A stretch of 64,000 nt of DNA from Escherichia phage AV116, in the sequence record OR352946.1. The stretch is one strand, 5' to 3'. Under the pieces are notes generated by a model that saw only the letters and a list, made by a program, of their open reading frames with translations, had not been told where the DNA came from and searched no databases. The translations under genes and the position numbers were made by a program. This document shows positions 11,808 to 36,085 of the stretch, piece by piece; within the stretch, counting starts at the first letter, position 1, and each line of letters starts with the position of its first letter.

Positions 11808-12278
11808 TTAATCATGTTTCCACACCCCATCGGTATTTGACCAAAGTCGCTGATTATCTGATCCTCGCCACAGTTTTTTGGTCGGAAGATTTTTCTCATA
11901 CTTCCCATCAATAATAACATCAACATATTTAAGCATTTCTAGTTGTTTAATATCTTCAAACTTATATCCTGTCCACAACCAAATGCTTTTATTGGGATAA
12001 AGATTTTTTACTGTTTGAACAATGCAATGAATAACATCTCGGTTATCAGGATAGAGAGGGTCACCTCCGGTTATAGTTAATCCTTCTATATAATCATTAT
12101 TCAAACATTCAATTAATTGTTCTAGTGTTTCACCAGTGAATGGAATACCATTTCTAGCATTCCATGTTGATTTATTATAACACCCTTCGCATTTATGCAA
12201 ACAACCTGTAACGAAAAGAACGACCCTACAACCAGGGCCATTCACAAAATCGCAAGGATAAAATCTATCATAATTCAT
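11808..12278 (-). CDS. nrdG: anaerobic ribonucleotide reductase activating protein NrdG (radical SAM)
   Basis: 156 aa; cysteine cluster GCLHKCEGCYN; immediately upstream of nrdD. Confidence 0.9.
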   Translation of the reverse strand: MNYDRFYPCDFVNGPGCRVVLFVTGCLHKCEGCYNKSTWNARNGIPFTGETLEQLIECLNNDYIEGLTITGGDPLYPDNRDVIHCIVQTVKNLYPNKSIWLWTGYKFEDIKQLEMLKYVDVIIDGKYEKNLPTKKLWRGSDNQRLWSNTDGVWKHD

Positions 12279-14092
12279 TGGTGTTTAACCCTATGCATGA
12301 TTTCTTTATTTTTACCGAGATTAAATCCGCGTTCGTTCGGATTTCCCAAATAGCCGCATGTTCTTCTTATGGTGTTCATCTTTTTAGGATCAGTTTCTCC
12401 GCAAACTGAACAAACAAATCCATTTTCGGTAGGAGTCATTTCATGAGTACTTCCACATGTAAAACATTTATCTACTGGCATATTAACACCAAAATAATCT
12501 AAATGTTGTGCAGCATAATCCCAGACAGCCTCAAGTCCTTTTAAGTTATTTTTCATATCAGGAAGTTCAACATAAGAAATGTGACCACCTGTCGCAATGA
12601 AATGATACGGCGCTTCACGAGAAATCTTTTCAAACGGAGTAGTATTTTCTTCTACTGAAACGTGGAAACTGTTAGTGTACCAGCCTTTATCGGTAACATC
12701 TTTTACACTTCCATATTTTTCTGTATCAAGTTTACAGAAGCGATAACAAAGGTTTTCAGCAGGAGTAGAATACAAACTAAAAGCAAAACCAGTTCTTTCA
12801 GTCCACTGTTTAAGATGAGCATTCATTTTAGTTAAAATTTCTTGTCCAATATCACGACCGACAAGAATATTCAATTCATGAATACCGATGTATCCTAAAG
12901 ACACTGAACTTCTACCGTTTTTAAATAGCTCAATTATATCGTCATCAGGTTTAAGACGAACCCCGAATGCACCTTCTTGGTAAAGAATAGGAGCAACAGT
13001 CGCTTTAACTCCTTTTAAGGAACTAATTCTACACATCAAAGCTTCAAAACACAGGTCCATTCGTTCATTGAATAATTCAACAAATTTCTGTTCATTGAAC
13101 TGTGTTCCAATATAAGAATCTAATGCGATACGAGGAAGATTCAGTGTTACAACGCCGAGATTATTACGACCGTCAAGAATTTCATTTCCAGTTGAATCTT
13201 TCCATACGCTCAAGAAACTACGGCAACCCATCGGAGAAACTGGAACTGAAGAACCGGTAATAGCTTTATTATTCTTAACTGAAATAATGTCAGGATACAT
13301 TCTTTTGCTTGCACATTCTAACGCAAGTTGTTTAATATCATAGTTTGGATCATCTTTATAAAGATTAACACCTTCTTCAAAAAACATAACAAGCTTAGGG
13401 AAAATAGGAGTTATTCCATCACGTCCAAGGCCTTTAATGCGGTTTTTAAGAATTGCCTTCTGAATCATTCGTTCAGTCCAGTCAGTTCCCGTACCAAATG
13501 TAATTGTCACAAAAGGCGTTTGTCCGTTTGAACTAAAGAGAGTGTTTACTTCATATTCATAAGCTTGGAATGCATCGTATACGTCTTTTTCTGTTTTAGA
13601 TTGAGCATAATTCAGAATGTCTGGTATTTGCCATTTTTCTGCATCTTCAACATGTTTAGCGTATGTGCGTTTAACATAAGGAGAAAGAACTTTATCGACA
13701 TTCGCAAATGTAGTTCCGCCATACTGGTGTGAAGCAACTTGTGCAGTAATTTGTGCCATAATTGCAGTAGCAACGCCAATAGATTTAGGCGTTTCAATTT
13801 GAGCATTGCCTAATTTAAATCCATTCTCAAGCATTCCTTTTAAATCTACTAAACAGCAATTAGTAAAAGGCAATGATATACTATAATCTAAATCGTGAAA
13901 ATGAATTAATCCGACATTATGAGCATTTACAATATGGCTCGGAAGAATACTACAAGCGATATGTTTAGAAACAATACCGGCCATTAAATCTCTTTTTGTT
14001 GGAAAGACACGAGAATCTTTGTTGGCATTTTCGGTATTTAATTCTTTATCTTTATTTGAAATAAAATTTAAAACATCTTTCTCTAAAGACAT
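12275..14092 (-). CDS. nrdD: anaerobic ribonucleoside-triphosphate reductase NrdD
   Basis: 605 aa; C-terminal glycyl-radical motif RTCGYLG and zinc ribbon CFTCG...CSVCG; uninterrupted ORF (no intron apparent). Confidence 0.95.
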   Translation of the reverse strand: MSLEKDVLNFISNKDKELNTENANKDSRVFPTKRDLMAGIVSKHIACSILPSHIVNAHNVGLIHFHDLDYSISLPFTNCCLVDLKGMLENGFKLGNAQIETPKSIGVATAIMAQITAQVASHQYGGTTFANVDKVLSPYVKRTYAKHVEDAEKWQIPDILNYAQSKTEKDVYDAFQAYEYEVNTLFSSNGQTPFVTITFGTGTDWTERMIQKAILKNRIKGLGRDGITPIFPKLVMFFEEGVNLYKDDPNYDIKQLALECASKRMYPDIISVKNNKAITGSSVPVSPMGCRSFLSVWKDSTGNEILDGRNNLGVVTLNLPRIALDSYIGTQFNEQKFVELFNERMDLCFEALMCRISSLKGVKATVAPILYQEGAFGVRLKPDDDIIELFKNGRSSVSLGYIGIHELNILVGRDIGQEILTKMNAHLKQWTERTGFAFSLYSTPAENLCYRFCKLDTEKYGSVKDVTDKGWYTNSFHVSVEENTTPFEKISREAPYHFIATGGHISYVELPDMKNNLKGLEAVWDYAAQHLDYFGVNMPVDKCFTCGSTHEMTPTENGFVCSVCGETDPKKMNTIRRTCGYLGNPNERGFNLGKNKEIMHRVKHQ

Positions 14093-14904
14093 AATTCTAA
14101 TTTATCCTTTTGAAATTCTTCGTCTAAATATGGGTTCCAACCCATTTTAAACCTTTTGATGAAATTATCAATTCTAAATTTCGGTAAATTTAACTCCGCA
14201 AAAATAGATGATTTACTTTTAAAATCTGGACCTAAATAATCATATAAAATTTCTGCGTATTTTAACCATAATATATAAGTACCAGATTTAATTGCGTTCG
14301 GAGTTTTCCAAGGTTTTACACCATACATCGGATTTCCACTTCCTTTATGCCTGATAGAAGATGAAATTCCAATTTTAATTTTAGCTTCCTTTGTATGCGA
14401 AAATCCACGATGCGGATTTTCTTTCCAGTATTTTTTAGCAGCTTCTGATATTTTCTTTCTGGCTAAATTAGTATGATGCTTTCCATAAAATCCATGATTT
14501 TTGCCTTTATTACGATTTCTTTTAATCATGGTTATTGATTGCTTTTCTCTAGTTTCTTTAGAAGGAGAAATACCATATGTCGTAAATTTGCCATCAGCAT
14601 ATGCTAAATTAAAATACTCTTTATTCCATACATCTTTTTCTATATTCTTTTGAAATTCAGCTTCAATGCTAGTTATTTGTTCATCTCCGACTAATTGAAA
14701 ATATAATATTTCAACTTTCGGCGTTTCTTTCAATAAGGCTTTTTGAAATTCGGAAGATGACGAAGACGAATAATAAAATTTACCATTTTTATCAATAATA
14801 TTCGTTCCATCAAAAGTGCAATTGGTTTTACTTCCAATGTAATAATATGGTGGGGTTTTAGCATTAATTCTATTAATAAATGATAGTTTATATACTACAT
14901 TCAT
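14083..14904 (-). CDS. GIY-YIG-like homing endonuclease with NUMOD3-like repeat, paralog 3
   Basis: VVYKLSFINR...YYYIGSK; GKNHGFYGKHHTNLARKKISEA; free-standing between nrdD and 49. Confidence 0.55.
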   Translation of the reverse strand: MNVVYKLSFINRINAKTPPYYYIGSKTNCTFDGTNIIDKNGKFYYSSSSSSEFQKALLKETPKVEILYFQLVGDEQITSIEAEFQKNIEKDVWNKEYFNLAYADGKFTTYGISPSKETREKQSITMIKRNRNKGKNHGFYGKHHTNLARKKISEAAKKYWKENPHRGFSHTKEAKIKIGISSSIRHKGSGNPMYGVKPWKTPNAIKSGTYILWLKYAEILYDYLGPDFKSKSSIFAELNLPKFRIDNFIKRFKMGWNPYLDEEFQKDKLELCL

Positions 14905-15374
14905 TTTAAACTCTTTCTAAGCTGCTTTTTGAATGAAGCTATTAATTGTGTTTTAGTATCAGATTCAGTATATTCAAATCCTCTTTGAAGCATCTCAGCC
15001 ATCATTTCCTCTTTACCTAGTCTTGAGAACTCTTTAGTTTTGTCTGGAACAAAATTAGGATGGATATTATTATCAGAATAATCTTGTTTCAAATAAGCAA
15101 GAAGAGCTTCAAGCCATTCTAAGTAGTCAACGTTTTGACCTTTCAAACCGGAACGGTTGAACTTATGCTTCATTTGACCTTCTGCTGCGTTGCACAGATT
15201 ACAGAGTAATCCACGAACTCTACCGGCTTTTGGCCCGTTTAATTCATGGTCGTGGTCAAGATGGTTACCTTGAACATCAGGGTCTAATTCACGGTGGCAA
15301 ATAGGACACTTACCGTTCTGTGCATCATAAAATTTTTGTTTTTCTTCTTTATATTTTGCGCCTGATAATAACAT
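14901..15374 (-). CDS. 49: endonuclease VII (Holliday junction resolvase) gp49
   Basis: 157 aa; Zn-binding CPIC...CNLC and HLDHDHE motif; same length as T4 gp49. Confidence 0.9.
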   Translation of the reverse strand: MLLSGAKYKEEKQKFYDAQNGKCPICHRELDPDVQGNHLDHDHELNGPKAGRVRGLLCNLCNAAEGQMKHKFNRSGLKGQNVDYLEWLEALLAYLKQDYSDNNIHPNFVPDKTKEFSRLGKEEMMAEMLQRGFEYTESDTKTQLIASFKKQLRKSLK

Positions 15375-26099: not shown

Positions 26100-26439
26100 T
26101 TGCTGCAAGTCCTCTAGTATAAGAGTCAACTAGACGGTCCACCATAGAATTGCATGCCGCCTTATCTTTAGGTTCCGCCACCGAGCATTCTAATATTTGC
26201 CATTTTTTATAGTATCTTTTAATTAAGGTAGACGCCTTGAACCTACTAGACGCCCCATCTTTTTCTCCGTCTTTATACGCATATAACAATTTTTGTGAAA
26301 AATCTACTTTACACTCTTGACTTTTACCACAATAATCAGACGCCGTTCTGTTTGTATACTCCGTTACATCAGTATATGTAGTATTAGCAAGAGCGTTAAA
26401 TGAAACCAAGCCAACTATTAAAGCCAACATTTTGGTCAT
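26092..26439 (-). CDS. secreted/periplasmic protein (positional equivalent of T4 vs)
   Basis: 115 aa; N-terminal signal peptide-like MTKMLALIVGLVSFNALA. Confidence 0.45.
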   Translation of the reverse strand: MTKMLALIVGLVSFNALANTTYTDVTEYTNRTASDYCGKSQECKVDFSQKLLYAYKDGEKDGASSRFKASTLIKRYYKKWQILECSVAEPKDKAACNSMVDRLVDSYTRGLAASD

Positions 26440-26978
26440 TCTTTTATTTCCAGTAGTTTATTTGATTTAAGGTAATTAGCCTTTTCTAGGACTTCAGAAG
26501 CATATTTACTTCCAGCACTTGTCTTCCATCCCGCATTATATGAGGATATGGCTTTCCTTATATCCCCGTTATGTATATTTAACCAATAAGAAAATTCGAT
26601 ATAAGCCCATCTGGCTGAATTAGACCGCTTAGATAGCATTTTCTTAATTTGGGCATCAGTCATATTATAACCAAGCTGGTTAATTCTTGCCCTCATTGTT
26701 GGTAGATAGTTTTGGAACATTCCATACGCATGGTGACCTTTCTTATCTTTAAGATTAATACCGGCAGATGATTCCTGCCATAGTATTGCGGCCATTATGT
26801 ATCCAAGTCCTTTCTTATGCATATTTTCATGCGTTTTAAATTTTCCGTCCTTAGAAAACTGTTCCCCAAACTGATAAGCATAATTCAAGTTATCGAGTTG
26901 GACATTACTAAAAGTATGCTCGGAGCTATGTGCTGATAACGAAAGAGCAAATAGACCAGCGAGTAGTGCTTTTCTCAT
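26436..26978 (-). CDS. secreted protein with lytic transglycosylase-like motif (vs.1-position)
   Basis: signal peptide MRKALLAGLFALSLSAHS; LWQESS motif reminiscent of SLT catalytic Glu-Ser. Confidence 0.45.
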   Translation of the reverse strand: MRKALLAGLFALSLSAHSSEHTFSNVQLDNLNYAYQFGEQFSKDGKFKTHENMHKKGLGYIMAAILWQESSAGINLKDKKGHHAYGMFQNYLPTMRARINQLGYNMTDAQIKKMLSKRSNSARWAYIEFSYWLNIHNGDIRKAISSYNAGWKTSAGSKYASEVLEKANYLKSNKLLEIKE

Positions 26979-26986
26979 GTTTACCT

Positions 26987-27445
26987 CTAGATTTTAATCA
27001 CTGCTTTAGAAGCTTTTCCTGGTAGTCGTTTACTGTTAATAATAGCCATTCTACATTGAAGAGTCTTCATTTTGAATGCCGGATTTTCGCGACAAACTGT
27101 AAGTCCTAACCAAAGATTTCCGTCAGTTATTTCTAAACGGCCTGGGCGATATTCGACACCTTCGACAAAATCTTCATCAACATCCGGACGTGCCGGCATT
27201 GATAAAAATTCTGCAACTTCTTTAACGTGATTTTTTACTTTATGAAATAATTCAAAAACGTAATTCTCATCTATTTCTCTCTGGATGGCACGATCTAAGA
27301 GATGTTGAGAATACTTGATATGAAAGCCTGGTAGTCCAAGAGACTTTGCAGCATCTTTTATACCGGCATTTATTTTGCGGAACTCCGTTTCAAAGATTCG
27401 ACGGAGTTTATTACGGCGGATAAAAACATCCGAATTGATAGTCAT
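26987..27445 (-). CDS. regB: site-specific RNA endonuclease RegB
   Basis: 152 aa; matches remembered T4 RegB (SQHLLDRAIQREID, EYRPGRLEITDGNLWLG). Confidence 0.75.
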   Translation of the reverse strand: MTINSDVFIRRNKLRRIFETEFRKINAGIKDAAKSLGLPGFHIKYSQHLLDRAIQREIDENYVFELFHKVKNHVKEVAEFLSMPARPDVDEDFVEGVEYRPGRLEITDGNLWLGLTVCRENPAFKMKTLQCRMAIINSKRLPGKASKAVIKI

Positions 27446-27473
27446 TTTGATTTCTCCTCTAGTTGACAGGTCT

Positions 27474-27502
27474 ATAGTAACACAACTAGAGGAGAAGTAA
27501 AC
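27474..27502 (-). promoter_or_regulatory. T4-type early promoter-like element upstream of regB
   Basis: minus strand GTTTAC-N17-TACTAT. Confidence 0.5.
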
Positions 27503-27506
27503 TACT

Positions 27507-27722
27507 TTATTGATAAAATGGAGTTAAAGCCCAGGATTCTTTAGATACTATATTGGCGAAATGCCTCATCTCTTCGATTTGGCGACGACGCTGGTCAGCA
27601 TAGTCTTCTTCGCCTTCTTCCTTACAGTCTTCAAGGTCTTCTTCAAGATACTTTAAGTATTCACTACAAATTTTGTTGACCTTTTCTTGGAAGTCCAATA
27701 ACCCAGTAATAGTAGAAGCCAT
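27507..27722 (-). CDS. hypothetical acidic protein (vs.3-position)
   Basis: 71 aa ORF. Confidence 0.45.
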   Translation of the reverse strand: MASTITGLLDFQEKVNKICSEYLKYLEEDLEDCKEEGEEDYADQRRRQIEEMRHFANIVSKESWALTPFYQ

Positions 27723-27988
27723 TAGTATTTTTCCTCAGGTCGAAATACCGCACGACATGCCCACATGCTGGCTTCTTTTAGATGTTGCTTAGCATACTTA
27801 AGAGCCTGCACTGCATCCATATCTTCTTTGGTTTGTTGCTCTGTTTCATTTTCTTTCAAGATATATGCTTCTTCAATCAGAGCATCAAACATCAATCCAA
27901 GACGGACTTCGGCATCTTTAATAGCGTTCACTTTACTGATTTTATCATCGGTATGCGGCTTGTAGCCTTTGATGTCTTCAATCGACAT
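27722..27988 (-). CDS. candidate anti-CBASS cyclic-oligonucleotide sponge Acb2 (vs.4-position)
   Basis: 89 aa from ATG at 27988 with AGGAAA SD; second ORF after regB, matching the T4 vs.4 slot and size class; sequence not verifiable from memory. Confidence 0.45.
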   Translation of the reverse strand: MSIEDIKGYKPHTDDKISKVNAIKDAEVRLGLMFDALIEEAYILKENETEQQTKEDMDAVQALKYAKQHLKEASMWACRAVFRPEEKY

Positions 27989-28202
27989 AAGGAATTTCCT
28001 CATCAGTGGCAAGGTCATATTCGACCAATTGGATAGGCTCATTAATACCATATCCACGTACAGTGATATCGGTTGACGGATAGTTTCCAGTAATATCACC
28101 CATTCTAAATGCTTCAATGAATGATTGCTCGCCTGAGCAACTAAACCAGGCGGCAAAACATTTTAAAACATCTTCAGACCCTTCTATAATCAATTTAGCC
28201 AT
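27978..28202 (-). CDS. hypothetical acidic protein (vs.5-position)
   Basis: 74 aa ORF. Confidence 0.4.
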   Translation of the reverse strand: MAKLIIEGSEDVLKCFAAWFSCSGEQSFIEAFRMGDITGNYPSTDITVRGYGINEPIQLVEYDLATDEEIPYVD

Positions 28203-28564
28203 TATAGACTCTCAGTAAAGGTACGAGCGATAACGTCGCGCTGCTGTTCCGGAGTCAGAGAGTTAAAGCGAACTGCATAACCGGATACACGGATGGTCAG
28301 CTGCGGATATTTTTCTGGATGCTTAACTGCATCTTCTAGAGTTTCACGACGCAGAACGTTAACGTTCAGATGTTGACCACCTTCAATTTTAACTTTAGGT
28401 TGATGTTCAATTTCAATTTCACGGGCATGCAAACCGTAGAAAATTTCCGGGTCTACAATAGTGTCTTCTTTAAAAGTCTTAGAGACAATAATCCGGGCTT
28501 GAGTACCATCTTCAAAATAAATAGTGCCTTTATGTGCACCTTCAAGAATTTGATATGCTTTCAT
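28202..28564 (-). CDS. autonomous glycyl radical cofactor GrcA/YfiD-like (T4 Y06I-like)
   Basis: C-terminal approx 60 aa ([60 protein letters not shown]) match E. coli GrcA as I remember it, including the RVSGY glycyl-radical motif. Confidence 0.85.
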
Positions 28565-28570
28565 ATAACC

Positions 28571-28879
28571 TCAATTAGAAAATAAATTTATCCAAGTTTT
28601 TTCTTTAATCAAAAATGGGTCGGAATTAAACGCCATTAAACTTTGAGTGATTAATCCCTTAAATGGCCCATCAATAAATTCCATTTTGAAATGCGGAATA
28701 CTAGTCATCAACCGTGCATTAGGAGCAGTACAAAGAACCTGCTGCCCTGCGAACGGACCTTTAGTCAAACGATATCGTTTAGGTTTAAAATGGTAAATCT
28801 CGTAATTTTCTACAAGAGCCCTTTTATTGCATACTGGGCTGTTATAACAATACTCAAAAACTTCAATAGTGGTCATCAT
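28571..28879 (-). CDS. hypothetical cysteine-containing protein (vs.7-position)
   Basis: ATG at 28879 in ATGA overlap with upstream stop. Confidence 0.4.
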   Translation of the reverse strand: MMTTIEVFEYCYNSPVCNKRALVENYEIYHFKPKRYRLTKGPFAGQQVLCTAPNARLMTSIPHFKMEFIDGPFKGLITQSLMAFNSDPFLIKEKTWINLFSN

Positions 28880-29415
28880 TGCATTCCAATCACAAAAAAT
28901 TGAGGACGAGCAATACCGCCGATGCAATATTTGCTTTTGCAACAGTGTTGGACTGTTTTAATATGGACATTGTAAATCTTATCCATATCAGGAGCTTTAA
29001 TAGGCTCGTCAATTATGTACAGAATACGAGAAAGCGTTAATCCACGGAATTTAGAACCTTCATTGCCAATAAAACTACGAACAGAATCAGTAAATAAACG
29101 GAATCGAATATCGTCGCTAGAATAACGAGAAAATTCTTTTTTAATGTTGCCGGCAGAAATTTTAGCATAAGCTGAAGTATTAGAAAGAACAATAACTGTT
29201 CCACCATCATACAGCCAATTAACAGCAAAATTAGTTACTGCGGTCGATTTACCTGATTGTCTGCCGCCGTCTAAACGAAGTGTACAGTACTGCTTGAGTA
29301 CGTCTTCAAATGGTGGGACATAACCGTTCTTACAAATTTCTTCTACTCTAGCATCAGAATGGTGTGTAAAAGCATTCATCAGGGATAGATAAGGACCAGT
29401 TAAAAATGTTCTCAT
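28876..29415 (-). CDS. small P-loop NTPase (vs.8-position)
   Basis: Walker A GGRQSGKST; Walker B-like ILYIIDEP. Confidence 0.5.
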   Translation of the reverse strand: MRTFLTGPYLSLMNAFTHHSDARVEEICKNGYVPPFEDVLKQYCTLRLDGGRQSGKSTAVTNFAVNWLYDGGTVIVLSNTSAYAKISAGNIKKEFSRYSSDDIRFRLFTDSVRSFIGNEGSKFRGLTLSRILYIIDEPIKAPDMDKIYNVHIKTVQHCCKSKYCIGGIARPQFFVIGMQ

Positions 29416-29496
29416 TTAGTTTCTCTTTTAGGTTGGGCCATTCCGTGGCGCATGAATTGTCCATTTCTGTATTTACCCCTCCAAGTAATTATGAAT

Positions 29497-29526
29497 ATAC
29501 TATCACAATTCTAGGAGAAAGTAAAC
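29497..29526 (-). promoter_or_regulatory. T4-type early promoter-like element
   Basis: minus strand GTTTAC-N18-TAGTAT. Confidence 0.45.
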
Positions 29527-29528
29527 TG

Positions 29529-29831
29529 TTATTTACCTTTAATTACTTTAGCTGCTTCGATAGCCGCTTGCTGAAGGTCATCCATAGACATACCAAATTT
29601 AGAAGCAAAGTTATCAATTTTCTTTTCGACAGCATTCAAAGGCTTGGCCTGTTTACCTTCATTAGCGCCAGGAAGAGCGAGAATACGCTCTTTGTCAATA
29701 TAAAGGCTTACAAGTTTCTTACGGTCTTTATCGGACAAATCATGAAATGAATGGGCCTTTTTATTTATAGCGGCTTCTAATTTACCTGCACTCACTCGCG
29801 CTTCAGTAATAAATTCTTGATATGTTTTCAT
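29529..29831 (-). CDS. internal protein with capsid-targeting sequence (IPII/IPIII-like)
   Basis: N-terminus MKTYQEFITEARV is the T4 internal-protein capsid-targeting sequence with L-x-E prohead protease site. Confidence 0.65.
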   Translation of the reverse strand: MKTYQEFITEARVSAGKLEAAINKKAHSFHDLSDKDRKKLVSLYIDKERILALPGANEGKQAKPLNAVEKKIDNFASKFGMSMDDLQQAAIEAAKVIKGK

Positions 29832-29861
29832 TTTTGTTTCCTTGTTTGTTTTGATAGAGTA

Positions 29862-29891
29862 ATTATACCATATTAATACTTAAGCGTAAAC
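29862..29891 (-). promoter_or_regulatory. T4-type early promoter-like element
   Basis: minus strand GTTTAC-N18-TATAAT. Confidence 0.5.
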
Positions 29892-29894
29892 AAT

Positions 29895-30155
29895 TTAAGC
29901 TTTACCGCCAGAAATAATTCCGAAGTTGTTAAAATCGTATCCAATATCGTCAACATCTACTTTAGGACTTACTACAACATAAGCAATTTCACTACGTTTT
30001 GCATAGGTGTTGATTTCTTTACCATCGCCACCTAAGAAAGAATACCCATTACGTTTTAATGAGCCAAAGTCTTCGGCATCACCAATGAAAGCTTTAACTT
30101 TAAATTTAGGACCTTTGGCATCTGCTTCAGCGATAAATTCTTGATACATTTTCAT
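29895..30155 (-). CDS. internal protein-like (capsid-targeting sequence), glycine-rich
   Basis: N-terminus MKMYQEFIAEA. Confidence 0.55.
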   Translation of the reverse strand: MKMYQEFIAEADAKGPKFKVKAFIGDAEDFGSLKRNGYSFLGGDGKEINTYAKRSEIAYVVVSPKVDVDDIGYDFNNFGIISGGKA

Positions 30156-30161
30156 TTTTCC

Positions 30162-30575
30162 TTAGTAAATTGATTTACCATAGTATTTGTACCAAGTCGG
30201 ACGTTGAGCAATTTTTTCATCTAAGCGTGCTTGACTTATCGCAATGGACGCTTCAGACGGGACGTAATTATTACGAAATTCTATAGGAATGTCGGAAATA
30301 TCCTGGACAGTCGTGTCCTTGATTTTGAAACCACGTTTCAAACATTCGGCTATTAGCTCGATTTGACGTAAACGTAAAAATTCGAGTTTGTCGTAAAAGA
30401 ATGTTACGTGACCTGTGCCTAAGATAAATGTTGGAGAGATTTTAAAATCCTTTACACGTTTACCGTTTTGAACATGTTTACGGACTGCACCAAATACGCG
30501 TGGTAATTCACGATACTCAGCCATAAGATGTTGGTCGGTCAGTTCAGAAACAAGTGTTAAATTGATACGGGTCAT
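30162..30575 (-). CDS. denV: endonuclease V (pyrimidine dimer DNA glycosylase) DenV
   Basis: from [12 protein letters not shown]; near-identical to remembered T4 endo V. Confidence 0.9.
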
Positions 30576-35729: not shown

Positions 35730-36085
35730 TTTCTACATTCCTTAATAAAGTTTTCGATTGTTTCATTTTCACGTTTAGCTAGAAGTTCATTATAACTAAT
35801 CATTTGAGAAGCGTAAATCTTTTTATTTTTCTTGTTATGGTTTATAAAATCGTAGTAAAAATAGACTACAGTACAAAATGATGCGATGGATGCAAAGGCT
35901 TGGGTATACCGTAAGTCCTGCCATTGGTCTGTGAATCCACCAGTGTTCCCTATAAATCCTAACACAACGCCGTCAATAAGAAATCCAACTAATCCAAAGG
36001 CAAATCCCATGCCAATACTCATAATAAAAATTAGAATGTTCTCACCAAGAGAAGGCCATATGGTTAAGAGTTGAGGCTTTTGCAT
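35726..36085 (-). CDS. membrane protein with C-terminal ENFIKECR tail
   Basis: two TM segments; tail IENFIKECRK. Confidence 0.5.
   Translation of the reverse strand: MQKPQLLTIWPSLGENILIFIMSIGMGFAFGLVGFLIDGVVLGFIGNTGGFTDQWQDLRYTQAFASIASFCTVVYFYYDFINHNKKNKKIYASQMISYNELLAKRENETIENFIKECRK

Follow-up and report, generated by a model that had tools for sequence, protein, structure and literature searches.

A glycyl-radical spare-part gene of Escherichia phage AV116 whose 3' half appears to have been repeatedly overwritten by host grcA

The DNA analyzed here, referred to as the window, is a stretch of 64,000 nucleotides (nt) of Escherichia phage AV116 (sequence record OR352946.1), and the gene under study lies at positions 28202-28564 on its minus strand. 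Judged by sequence and gene order, it is the Mosigvirus (RB69-like) orthologue of T4 vs.6, which encodes the protein Y06I, and it is called vs.6 below. It very probably represents a known spare-part gene whose 3' half has been overwritten repeatedly, and in a host-specific manner, by the grcA gene of the host. The phage gene as such is old, and only its 3' half young. The parts of the gene are listed below, with guanine plus cytosine (GC) content also given for third codon positions (GC3).

28202..28564, minus strand: orthologue of vs.6/Y06I, GrcA-like autonomous glycyl-radical cofactor of 120 amino acids, complete coding sequence including the stop codon (open reading frame list, Pfam, phrog_1209, 6OWR, synteny)
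28385..28564, minus strand: phage-type 5' half, codons 1-60, AT-rich (GC 0.34, GC3 0.22), apparently encoding a diverged homologue of the GrcA N-terminus (hhalign, conserved motif, AlphaFold2)
28214..28384, minus strand: putative host-derived conversion tract, codons 61-117, GC 0.48, E. coli grcA except for three synonymous changes
28277..28291, minus strand: glycyl-radical loop RVSGY, codons 92-96, with G95 at 28280-28282 (translation)
28202..28213, minus strand: 3' tail outside the tract, codons 118-120 and the stop codon, each of the three codons synonymously different from E. coli (codon alignment)

Residues 61-120 of the product are identical to residues 68-127 of E. coli GrcA (P68066) at 60 out of 60 positions, as the initial annotation had proposed for the last 60 or so residues including RVSGY. 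G95 corresponds to GrcA G102 and to G734 of the pyruvate formate-lyase PflB (alignment; PMC8683613). The C-terminal 60 residues are nearly invariant over Enterobacterales and many phages. In RB16-like phages and in many bacterial genera, these 60 residues are encoded unchanged by genes whose synonymous sites have diverged to saturation. Residue identity alone, on which the initial annotation had based its suggestion, is therefore no evidence of recent transfer, and the signal is carried by the DNA. Along the last 60 codons, 174 of 180 nt (96.7%) are shared with E. coli grcA and all six differences are synonymous, which is near-identity at the nucleotide level rather than similarity of a motif. 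Codons 84-117 are fully identical, and 5' of codon 61 the similarity collapses. Identity of the same block was 95.6% to cryptic-clade Escherichia, 89% to Citrobacter amalonaticus, 82-86% to Klebsiella and Enterobacter, and 81% to Salmonella, although the grcA genes of Citrobacter, Salmonella, Klebsiella, and Enterobacter encode the same or nearly the same peptide.

Tracts were compared over codons 61-113, a region of 159 nt with about 45 synonymous sites. T4, RB32, and OES_C-2 showed no difference from E. coli grcA in this region, followed by RB69 with two and the window with three, while the window differed from the grcA of Citrobacter, Klebsiella, and Salmonella at 13-31 positions. The three substitutions of the window (28370, 28337, and 28316) are synonymous and all lead from GC to AT. 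Synonymous divergence (dS, Nei-Gojobori) of eight coliphage copies from E. coli grcA ranged from 0.045 to 0.147, compared to 0.36 between E. coli and Citrobacter and 1.0 between E. coli and Salmonella. Over all copies, the direction of phage-specific substitutions was weakly biased, with nine GC-to-AT against seven AT-to-GC changes, and possible amelioration is claimed for the three window-specific changes only. The most E. coli-like block observed was that of OES_C-2 (Tequatrovirus, L169, gene 1029-1385) with one difference in 185 nt; its 5' half carries a deletion of two codons (118 amino acids, ...REIETQPTVKI).

Nucleotide alignment to host grcA located the boundary of identity at codon 61. 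A three-sequence breakpoint test, in which a CC31-like phage orthologue stood in for the phage parent and was set beside the window gene and E. coli grcA, placed a single breakpoint at nt 177-204 of the gene (p about 1e-12 to 1e-13). To the left, 43-44 phage-type informative sites stood against 9 host-type ones, and to the right 3-4 against 32-38. GC3 is about 0.2 in the 5' part and climbs to 0.37-0.47 within the block. Of the whole window, only the tract gave a megablast-level match when compared with 5,426 complete E. coli genomes. Its GC content falls within the top 0.3% of 160-nt segments, and 13 other stretches of the window reach similar values; GC content alone is a weak detector of the host tract. 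In 638 phage records, a block reaches at least 95% identity to E. coli grcA, and every match begins at one and the same grcA position.

A second phage-host pair was found among Klebsiella phages. Here, grcA DNA of the Klebsiella pneumoniae complex (P0151 from K. variicola, and P0150) was obtained by a protein search seeded with Klebsiella-type GrcA. The 5' half of the gene in the Jiaodavirus phages JD18, RCIP0102, and AM_K2 is phage-type, with 72-76% identity to that of the window, and is joined to a 3' block with the Klebsiella-type residues LLDAVEH and a GC3 of 0.58-0.60. The tracts of JD18 and RCIP0102 differ at 4 of 159 positions from K. pneumoniae-complex grcA versus 17-19 from E. coli. 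Their breakpoint was placed at nt 180-186 (p 1e-8 to 1e-13), with the 5' junction as in the coliphages, and codons 58-60 at the junction remain phage-type (V-K-I). Synonymous variants at the junction separate the two pairs, as T4 and E. coli read GGT GGT CAA...GTT and JD18 and Klebsiella read GGC GGT CAG...GTG. In a neighbor-joining tree of the tract, bootstrap support was 92% for E. coli with the coliphages, 81% for the K. pneumoniae complex with Jiaodavirus, and 0% for monophyly of the phages. A Ser/Pro polymorphism common to JD18, RCIP0102, and Klebsiella alleles was considered as a sign of separate donors; it is suggestive, but being a single transition it was not used.

A recent host-like tract was also sought in the homologues of CC31-like, RB16/RB43-like, KP15-like, jumbo, and T5-like phages, none of which came near any sampled host (26-40 differences in 159 nt). 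The 3' blocks of the CC31-like, RB16/RB43-like, and KP15-like phages are synonymously saturated against every sampled host. This applies even to the RB16-like copies, whose peptide is identical to that of E. coli GrcA. The KP15-like Klebsiella phages L099 and L100 encode the Klebsiella/Salmonella-type LLDAVEH with synonymous sites saturated against all hosts, and these residues may stem from a conversion long ago or from convergence on the host protein.

The N-terminal 60 or so residues had been described in the initial annotation as unrelated to GrcA, which did not hold. Aligned on their own with hhalign, the N-terminal halves of the phage profile and the bacterial GrcA profile matched with a probability of 96.8% (E 2.9e-10, 60 columns, 30% identity). 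The phmmer alignment of the product to 6OWR spans residues 21-120 and that of the NCBIfam GrcA model begins at residue 18. The N-terminal half is thus a diverged homologue of its GrcA counterpart. A motif consisting of a 14-residue stretch followed by ...ARIIVSK...RE. is kept across T4-like genera, and the phage-type N-terminus is common to Tequatrovirus, Mosigvirus, Jiaodavirus, CC31-like, RB16/RB43-like, and KP15-like phages as well as to jumbo contigs of about 350 kb, with a looser form in T5-like phages. Between the window phage and T4, the 5' half showed a nonsynonymous divergence (dN) of 0.047 and a dS of 0.35 (dN/dS about 0.13), which points to purifying selection.

AlphaFold2 modeled residues 1-50 (window 28415-28564) as a confident small beta-sheet unit with predicted local distance difference test (pLDDT) scores of 85-88, and the radical module scored lower when modeled in isolation. 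Foldseek matches of the model in the PDB were limited to the C-terminal module (6OWR and the C-termini of glycyl-radical enzymes, about 1 Å root-mean-square deviation), with no significant structural neighbor for the N-terminal beta unit. A KOW-like fold was considered for this unit and rejected, the Foldseek hits being weak (E > 0.1).

GrcA-like proteins of about 120 amino acids were also observed in T5-like contigs of about 104-121 kb (L125-L151 and L162) and in three contigs of about 350 kb (L107, L108, and L110), with an N-terminus of the MKAYQ or MTIKA type and diverged C-terminal ends (...TQAM, ...TTKV). Since T5-like and jumbo phages encode members, the phage GrcA-like family reaches well past the T4-like phages. 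Among the IMG/VR viral contigs, one (L112) carries a bacterial-type grcA (MITGIQITK...) with 91% nt identity to a Yersinia gene, and the 3' terminus of host pflB is present on ten others (L152-L161). All of them seem to be host DNA or flanking sequence of prophages that was classified as viral. Conversely, one entry filed as Escherichia coli (P0007) is a phage grcA copy on a 168-kb contig.

The assignment to vs.6 draws on the open reading frame, on domain matches, and on gene order. In the open reading frame list, the gene starts with ATG and runs over 120 codons. A GAGG Shine-Dalgarno sequence lies 6-9 nt 5' of the start, the stop codon shares bases with the start of vs.5 (TAATG), and the gene is part of a densely packed string on the minus strand. 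Pfam Gly_radical matched residues 60-101 (E 2.3e-18), and phrog_1209 covers residues 1-120 (E 5.8e-63; 4.8e-16 for the N-terminal 60 residues alone). The nuclear magnetic resonance structure of E. coli YfiD/GrcA (6OWR) was matched by phmmer with E 1.8e-42, and PflB 696-759 (1cm5/1h16) was aligned to the C-terminal module with E 3e-26. The size of the product fits a small stand-alone protein of the class of about 14 kDa that is essentially a C-terminal glycyl-radical domain.

The product is identical to T4 Vs.6 (Y06I) at 114 of 120 residues (95%), and all six differences fall within the first 60. A syntenic gene annotated as vs.6 occurs in RB32, RB69, and T4T/T4, where it is flanked by vs.7 and vs.5 and lies a few genes from regB and denV. 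The string vs.8-vs.7-vs.6-vs.5-vs.4-regB of the window is collinear with the annotated regions of RB32, RB69, T4T, and AV115. The nearest genome is that of Escherichia phage AV115 (Mosigvirus), which is 99.4% identical over vs.6 and collinear with the window. The earlier comparison to the YfiD-like gene of T4 was therefore well placed, as the window gene is its orthologue in the same neighborhood. The two adjacent genes served for calibration:

27978..28202, minus strand: vs.5 homologue, overlapping gene 3' of vs.6, 71% nt identity to T4, dS 1.9
28571..28879, minus strand: vs.7 homologue, neighbor 5' of vs.6, 69% nt identity to T4, dS 1.3

The direction of transfer was read from the bacterial genes. 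These show no discontinuity between their 5' and 3' parts (E. coli versus Citrobacter, Salmonella, and Klebsiella), have a host-like composition, and keep the ung-grcA synteny in E. coli and Klebsiella. Because bacterial grcA is uniform and syntenic and the block is compositionally anomalous in the phage only, the transfer ran from host to phage. A comparison of six Tequatrovirus with four Mosigvirus copies gave 10 fixed differences for the 5' half, as opposed to zero for codons 61-117 (Fisher p 0.0018). Every variant within the tract is private and departs from a consensus that matches E. coli grcA. The tract ends at codon 118 in T4, at codon 117 in Mosigvirus, and at about codon 114 in Jiaodavirus. 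Given these differing 3' ends, the host-specific synonymous variants, and the lack of a genus-specific fixed difference in the tract, the simplest reading would be at least three host-to-phage conversions, one each in Tequatrovirus, Mosigvirus, and Jiaodavirus.

The sequence comparison indicates the following course of events. T4-like phages have long carried a complete grcA homologue, the 5' half of which diverged into a conserved phage-specific form. In Tequatrovirus and Mosigvirus, E. coli grcA sequence took the place of codons 61 to about 117, and in Jiaodavirus, Klebsiella grcA sequence took that of codons 61 to about 114. This probably happened during infection by homologous recombination (gene conversion) between phage DNA and fragments of host DNA across the homologous block of about 180 nt. 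The limits of the tract would be the limits of homology, from the ten-residue stretch that marks the start of the structured domain to near the stop codon. The high identity of a host-like tract would favor further conversion in a positive feedback, such that the phage gene would follow the host gene in concerted evolution, and this feedback could account for some lineages being converted and others not. Whether a virulent, host-DNA-degrading T-even phage thereby keeps vs.6 in concerted evolution with the chromosomal copy, with conversion repeatedly resetting the 3' half to the current enterobacterial host, is put forward tentatively, as a proposal that may well prove wrong. If it is true, a module that needs to fit host PflB and PflA would be matched automatically, and the tract would record which hosts had recently been used and provide a measurable reporter of natural recombination from host to lytic phage.

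Several observations weigh against the reading of vs.6 as a spare-part gene overwritten repeatedly by the host gene, or restrict its scope. The product missed the equivalog cut-off of the NCBIfam GrcA model TIGR04365, with 158 bits against 170 (E. coli GrcA reaches 233.9), because its N-terminal half has diverged; by the NCBIfam criterion it would rank as a GrcA-like homologue and not as a formal equivalog. Recombination of this kind should be rare in T4-type phages, which break down host DNA and whose own DNA contains modified cytosines. The synonymous sites available in the tract are few, and conversion can be called ongoing only by inference from population patterns. In addition, RB16 and RB43, which infect E. 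coli, show no conversion, and tequatroviruses isolated on Yersinia, Hafnia, or Salmonella retain the E. coli tract, so that conversion is neither frequent nor universal. The neighbors of the window gene (vs.8, vs.7, vs.5, vs.4, regB, and vs.1; window 26436-29415) show 65-85% nt identity and dS 0.8-2.5 to T4 (compared with T4T, L164), whereas vs.6 as a whole shows 93.6% nt identity, with dS 0.35 in its 5' half and 0.15 in its 3' half. Such a low-divergence island implies some, apparently recent, exchange of the chimeric allele between phages, and as this explains part of the pattern, fewer host-to-phage events are strictly needed. Lastly, the tract of the window has diverged since the split from RB69 about as much as the flanking genes, so the last conversion in this phage was not very recent.

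These last points are also the strength of an account in which few conversions took place, one in a coliphage ancestor and one in Jiaodavirus, followed by spread between Tequatrovirus and Mosigvirus during co-infections without any continuing process. The island of low divergence, the flank-like age of the window tract, and the E. coli tract kept by Yersinia and Hafnia isolates would all be expected from it, as would the single position at which every tract starts, although a common 5' junction is also expected if it is merely the edge of homology. It is nevertheless rather unlikely. With spread alone, the contrast between 10 inter-genus differences in the 5' half and none in the tract would be hard to explain, as would a T4 tract without any difference from E. 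coli next to a T4 5' half at dS 0.35 from the Mosigvirus copy, and the 3' ends of T4, Mosigvirus, and Jiaodavirus would not be expected to differ. A single ancient capture of grcA, with C-terminal identity held by purifying selection and codon preference and without later recombination, is very improbable and can be regarded as refuted. It draws on the near-invariance of the C-terminal residues in Enterobacterales and phages and on the RB16-like phages, which keep the peptide without the DNA identity. Selection on the peptide leaves synonymous sites free, however, and Salmonella, Klebsiella, and RB16-like copies accordingly show 21-33 differences in 159 nt where T4 has none and the window three. 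Synonymous variants that track the host species in two independent phage-host pairs, the sharp breakpoint, and the jump in GC3 argue against it as well.

Misassembly of host reads into phage genomes, or transfer from phage to host, is the least probable of all and is likewise refuted; nothing was found in its favor, and it was considered since near-identical host DNA in the genome of a virulent phage is unusual. The 638 phage records with the tract are independent and include several T4 sequences; in each the tract is in frame and bears private substitutions specific to lineages. The even 5' and 3' divergence, host-like GC, and ung-grcA synteny of bacterial grcA, together with a block GC3 that is anomalous for the phage and not for the host, speak against phage-to-host transfer. 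Repeated, host-specific conversion is thus the preferred reading, and the recent capture or ongoing gene conversion suggested in the initial annotation is supported, with corrections. The synonymous sites, the sharp breakpoint, and the independent Klebsiella pair support conversion, while a fresh capture fused to an unrelated N-terminus does not stand. Likewise, the tract of this phage appears host-derived but not brand new, given its three substitutions and a divergence from RB69 about equal to that of its neighbors.

Only YfiD and T4 Y06I have been validated biochemically as spare-part proteins, in which PflA installs a glycyl radical and which restore the activity of oxygen-cleaved pyruvate formate-lyase (PMC8683613). 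For Y06I, this paper cites Wagner 2001 (PMID 11444864) as the source of the validation. Residues 1-60 of YfiD are disordered yet required for binding and activation, and the structured radical module is made up of residues 61-127 (PMC8683613). By analogy, a spare-part role for host pyruvate formate-lyase is inferred for the vs.6 product, in line with the rescue of the oxygen-damaged enzyme that the initial annotation had noted for the T4 gene, and the 5' half probably has a role in binding and activation as described for YfiD 1-60. Oxygen would cleave host PflB at the glycyl radical G734, the host-identical C-terminal module would dock into the damaged enzyme in place of the lost C-terminal fragment, and host activase PflA would place a new radical on G95. 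Fermentative production of acetyl-CoA and formate could thus go on in the infected cell. A cell infected by a T-even phage no longer expresses host genes (host shut-off), which would be why the phage supplies the spare part itself.

Compared to T4 Y06I/vs.6, the window gene is an orthologue with the same length, neighborhood, and host-identical C-terminal module. The mosaic is cleaner in T4, and the window copy differs in being of the Mosigvirus type, in its three private GC-to-AT synonymous changes, and in a tract that ends one codon earlier at the 3' side. With E. coli GrcA/YfiD (P68066; 6OWR; TIGR04365, IPR011140), it shares the identical C-terminal residues with the same RVSGY loop, an N-terminal half that is homologous over its whole length, and presumably the partners PflB and PflA. 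In contrast, the N-terminal half of the phage protein is only about 30% identical, seven residues shorter, and of a conserved phage-specific form, and it is predicted to be folded while YfiD 1-60 is reported to be disordered in solution.

The closest parallel is the psbA gene of cyanophages, for which intragenic recombination between host and phage and mosaic genes with patchy GC content are described (Zeidner 2005 and Sullivan 2006, as cited in PMC3900582). Both are host-derived metabolic genes in T4-like phages with discrete host-like segments, a shift in composition, and host-linked sequence types. The vs.6 gene shows the traits of a mosaic gene of the psbA type, namely a discrete tract of host identity with a supported breakpoint, a tract that tracks the host species, and a composition that shifts hostward. 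Unlike in psbA, the vs.6 tract is confined to a single defined block of about 160-175 nt, its ends coincide with the limits of homology, and its identity to the gene of the present-day host reaches 100%. The vs.6 mosaic also differs in occurring in enteric T-even phages that contain hydroxymethylcytosine and in pairing a conserved phage half with what appears to be a repeatedly renewed host half.

Full-text literature searches returned no prior description of the vs.6 mosaic, and an earlier remark on the identity is possible (e.g., in Wagner 2001). A 2010 review of T4-related genomes mentions neither vs.6 nor formate nor glycyl. The gene and its function are known, and the mosaic is apparently an undescribed case of a known process, host-phage intragenic recombination. 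Nothing new is added on the role of the protein, and the new element is evolutionary. In T4, the virulent phage that has been studied best, and in hundreds of its relatives, a block of about 160-175 nt matches the gene of today's host completely or almost completely, and the Klebsiella version takes its place in Klebsiella phages. This would be a clean natural case of gene conversion from the chromosome to lytic phages that destroy host DNA, and the tract may serve to indicate which host a T4-like phage has recently used. The protein would split into two parts, a module for which an exact match to the host is required and an N-terminal half that is conserved in a phage-specific form and predicted to fold. 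Annotation would gain as well. The family is listed as "unknown function" in PHROGs v4 (phrog_1209), and its GenBank labels are inconsistent, with hypothetical protein, pyruvate formate-lyase, glycerol dehydratase radical, and GrcA all in use.

Around vs.6, a promoter and terminator scan of 27400-30200 yielded nothing above shuffled expectation (7 found versus 9.4 expected), and the vs.5 homologue had no Pfam match. In AV115, a tRNA-Asn and a tRNA-Met are annotated (35837-35989), corresponding to about 35.8-36.0 kb of the window, where no megablast match to E. coli genomes was found. The phage further encodes a glycyl-radical enzyme of its own together with the activase, both of which the initial annotation had placed in the window:

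11808-12278, minus strand: nrdG, activase (Pfam Fer4_12, 2.3e-48, and Radical_SAM)
12275-14092, minus strand: nrdD, the phage's own glycyl-radical enzyme (Pfam NRDD, 5.4e-170, and Gly_radical)

The start of nrdD is overlapped by an open reading frame of 273 amino acids at 14083-14904 (minus strand) with a NUMOD3 motif of the homing-endonuclease type, which also overlaps the end of an endonuclease VII-like open reading frame at 14901-15374. Its counterpart in AV115 is annotated as a homing endonuclease.

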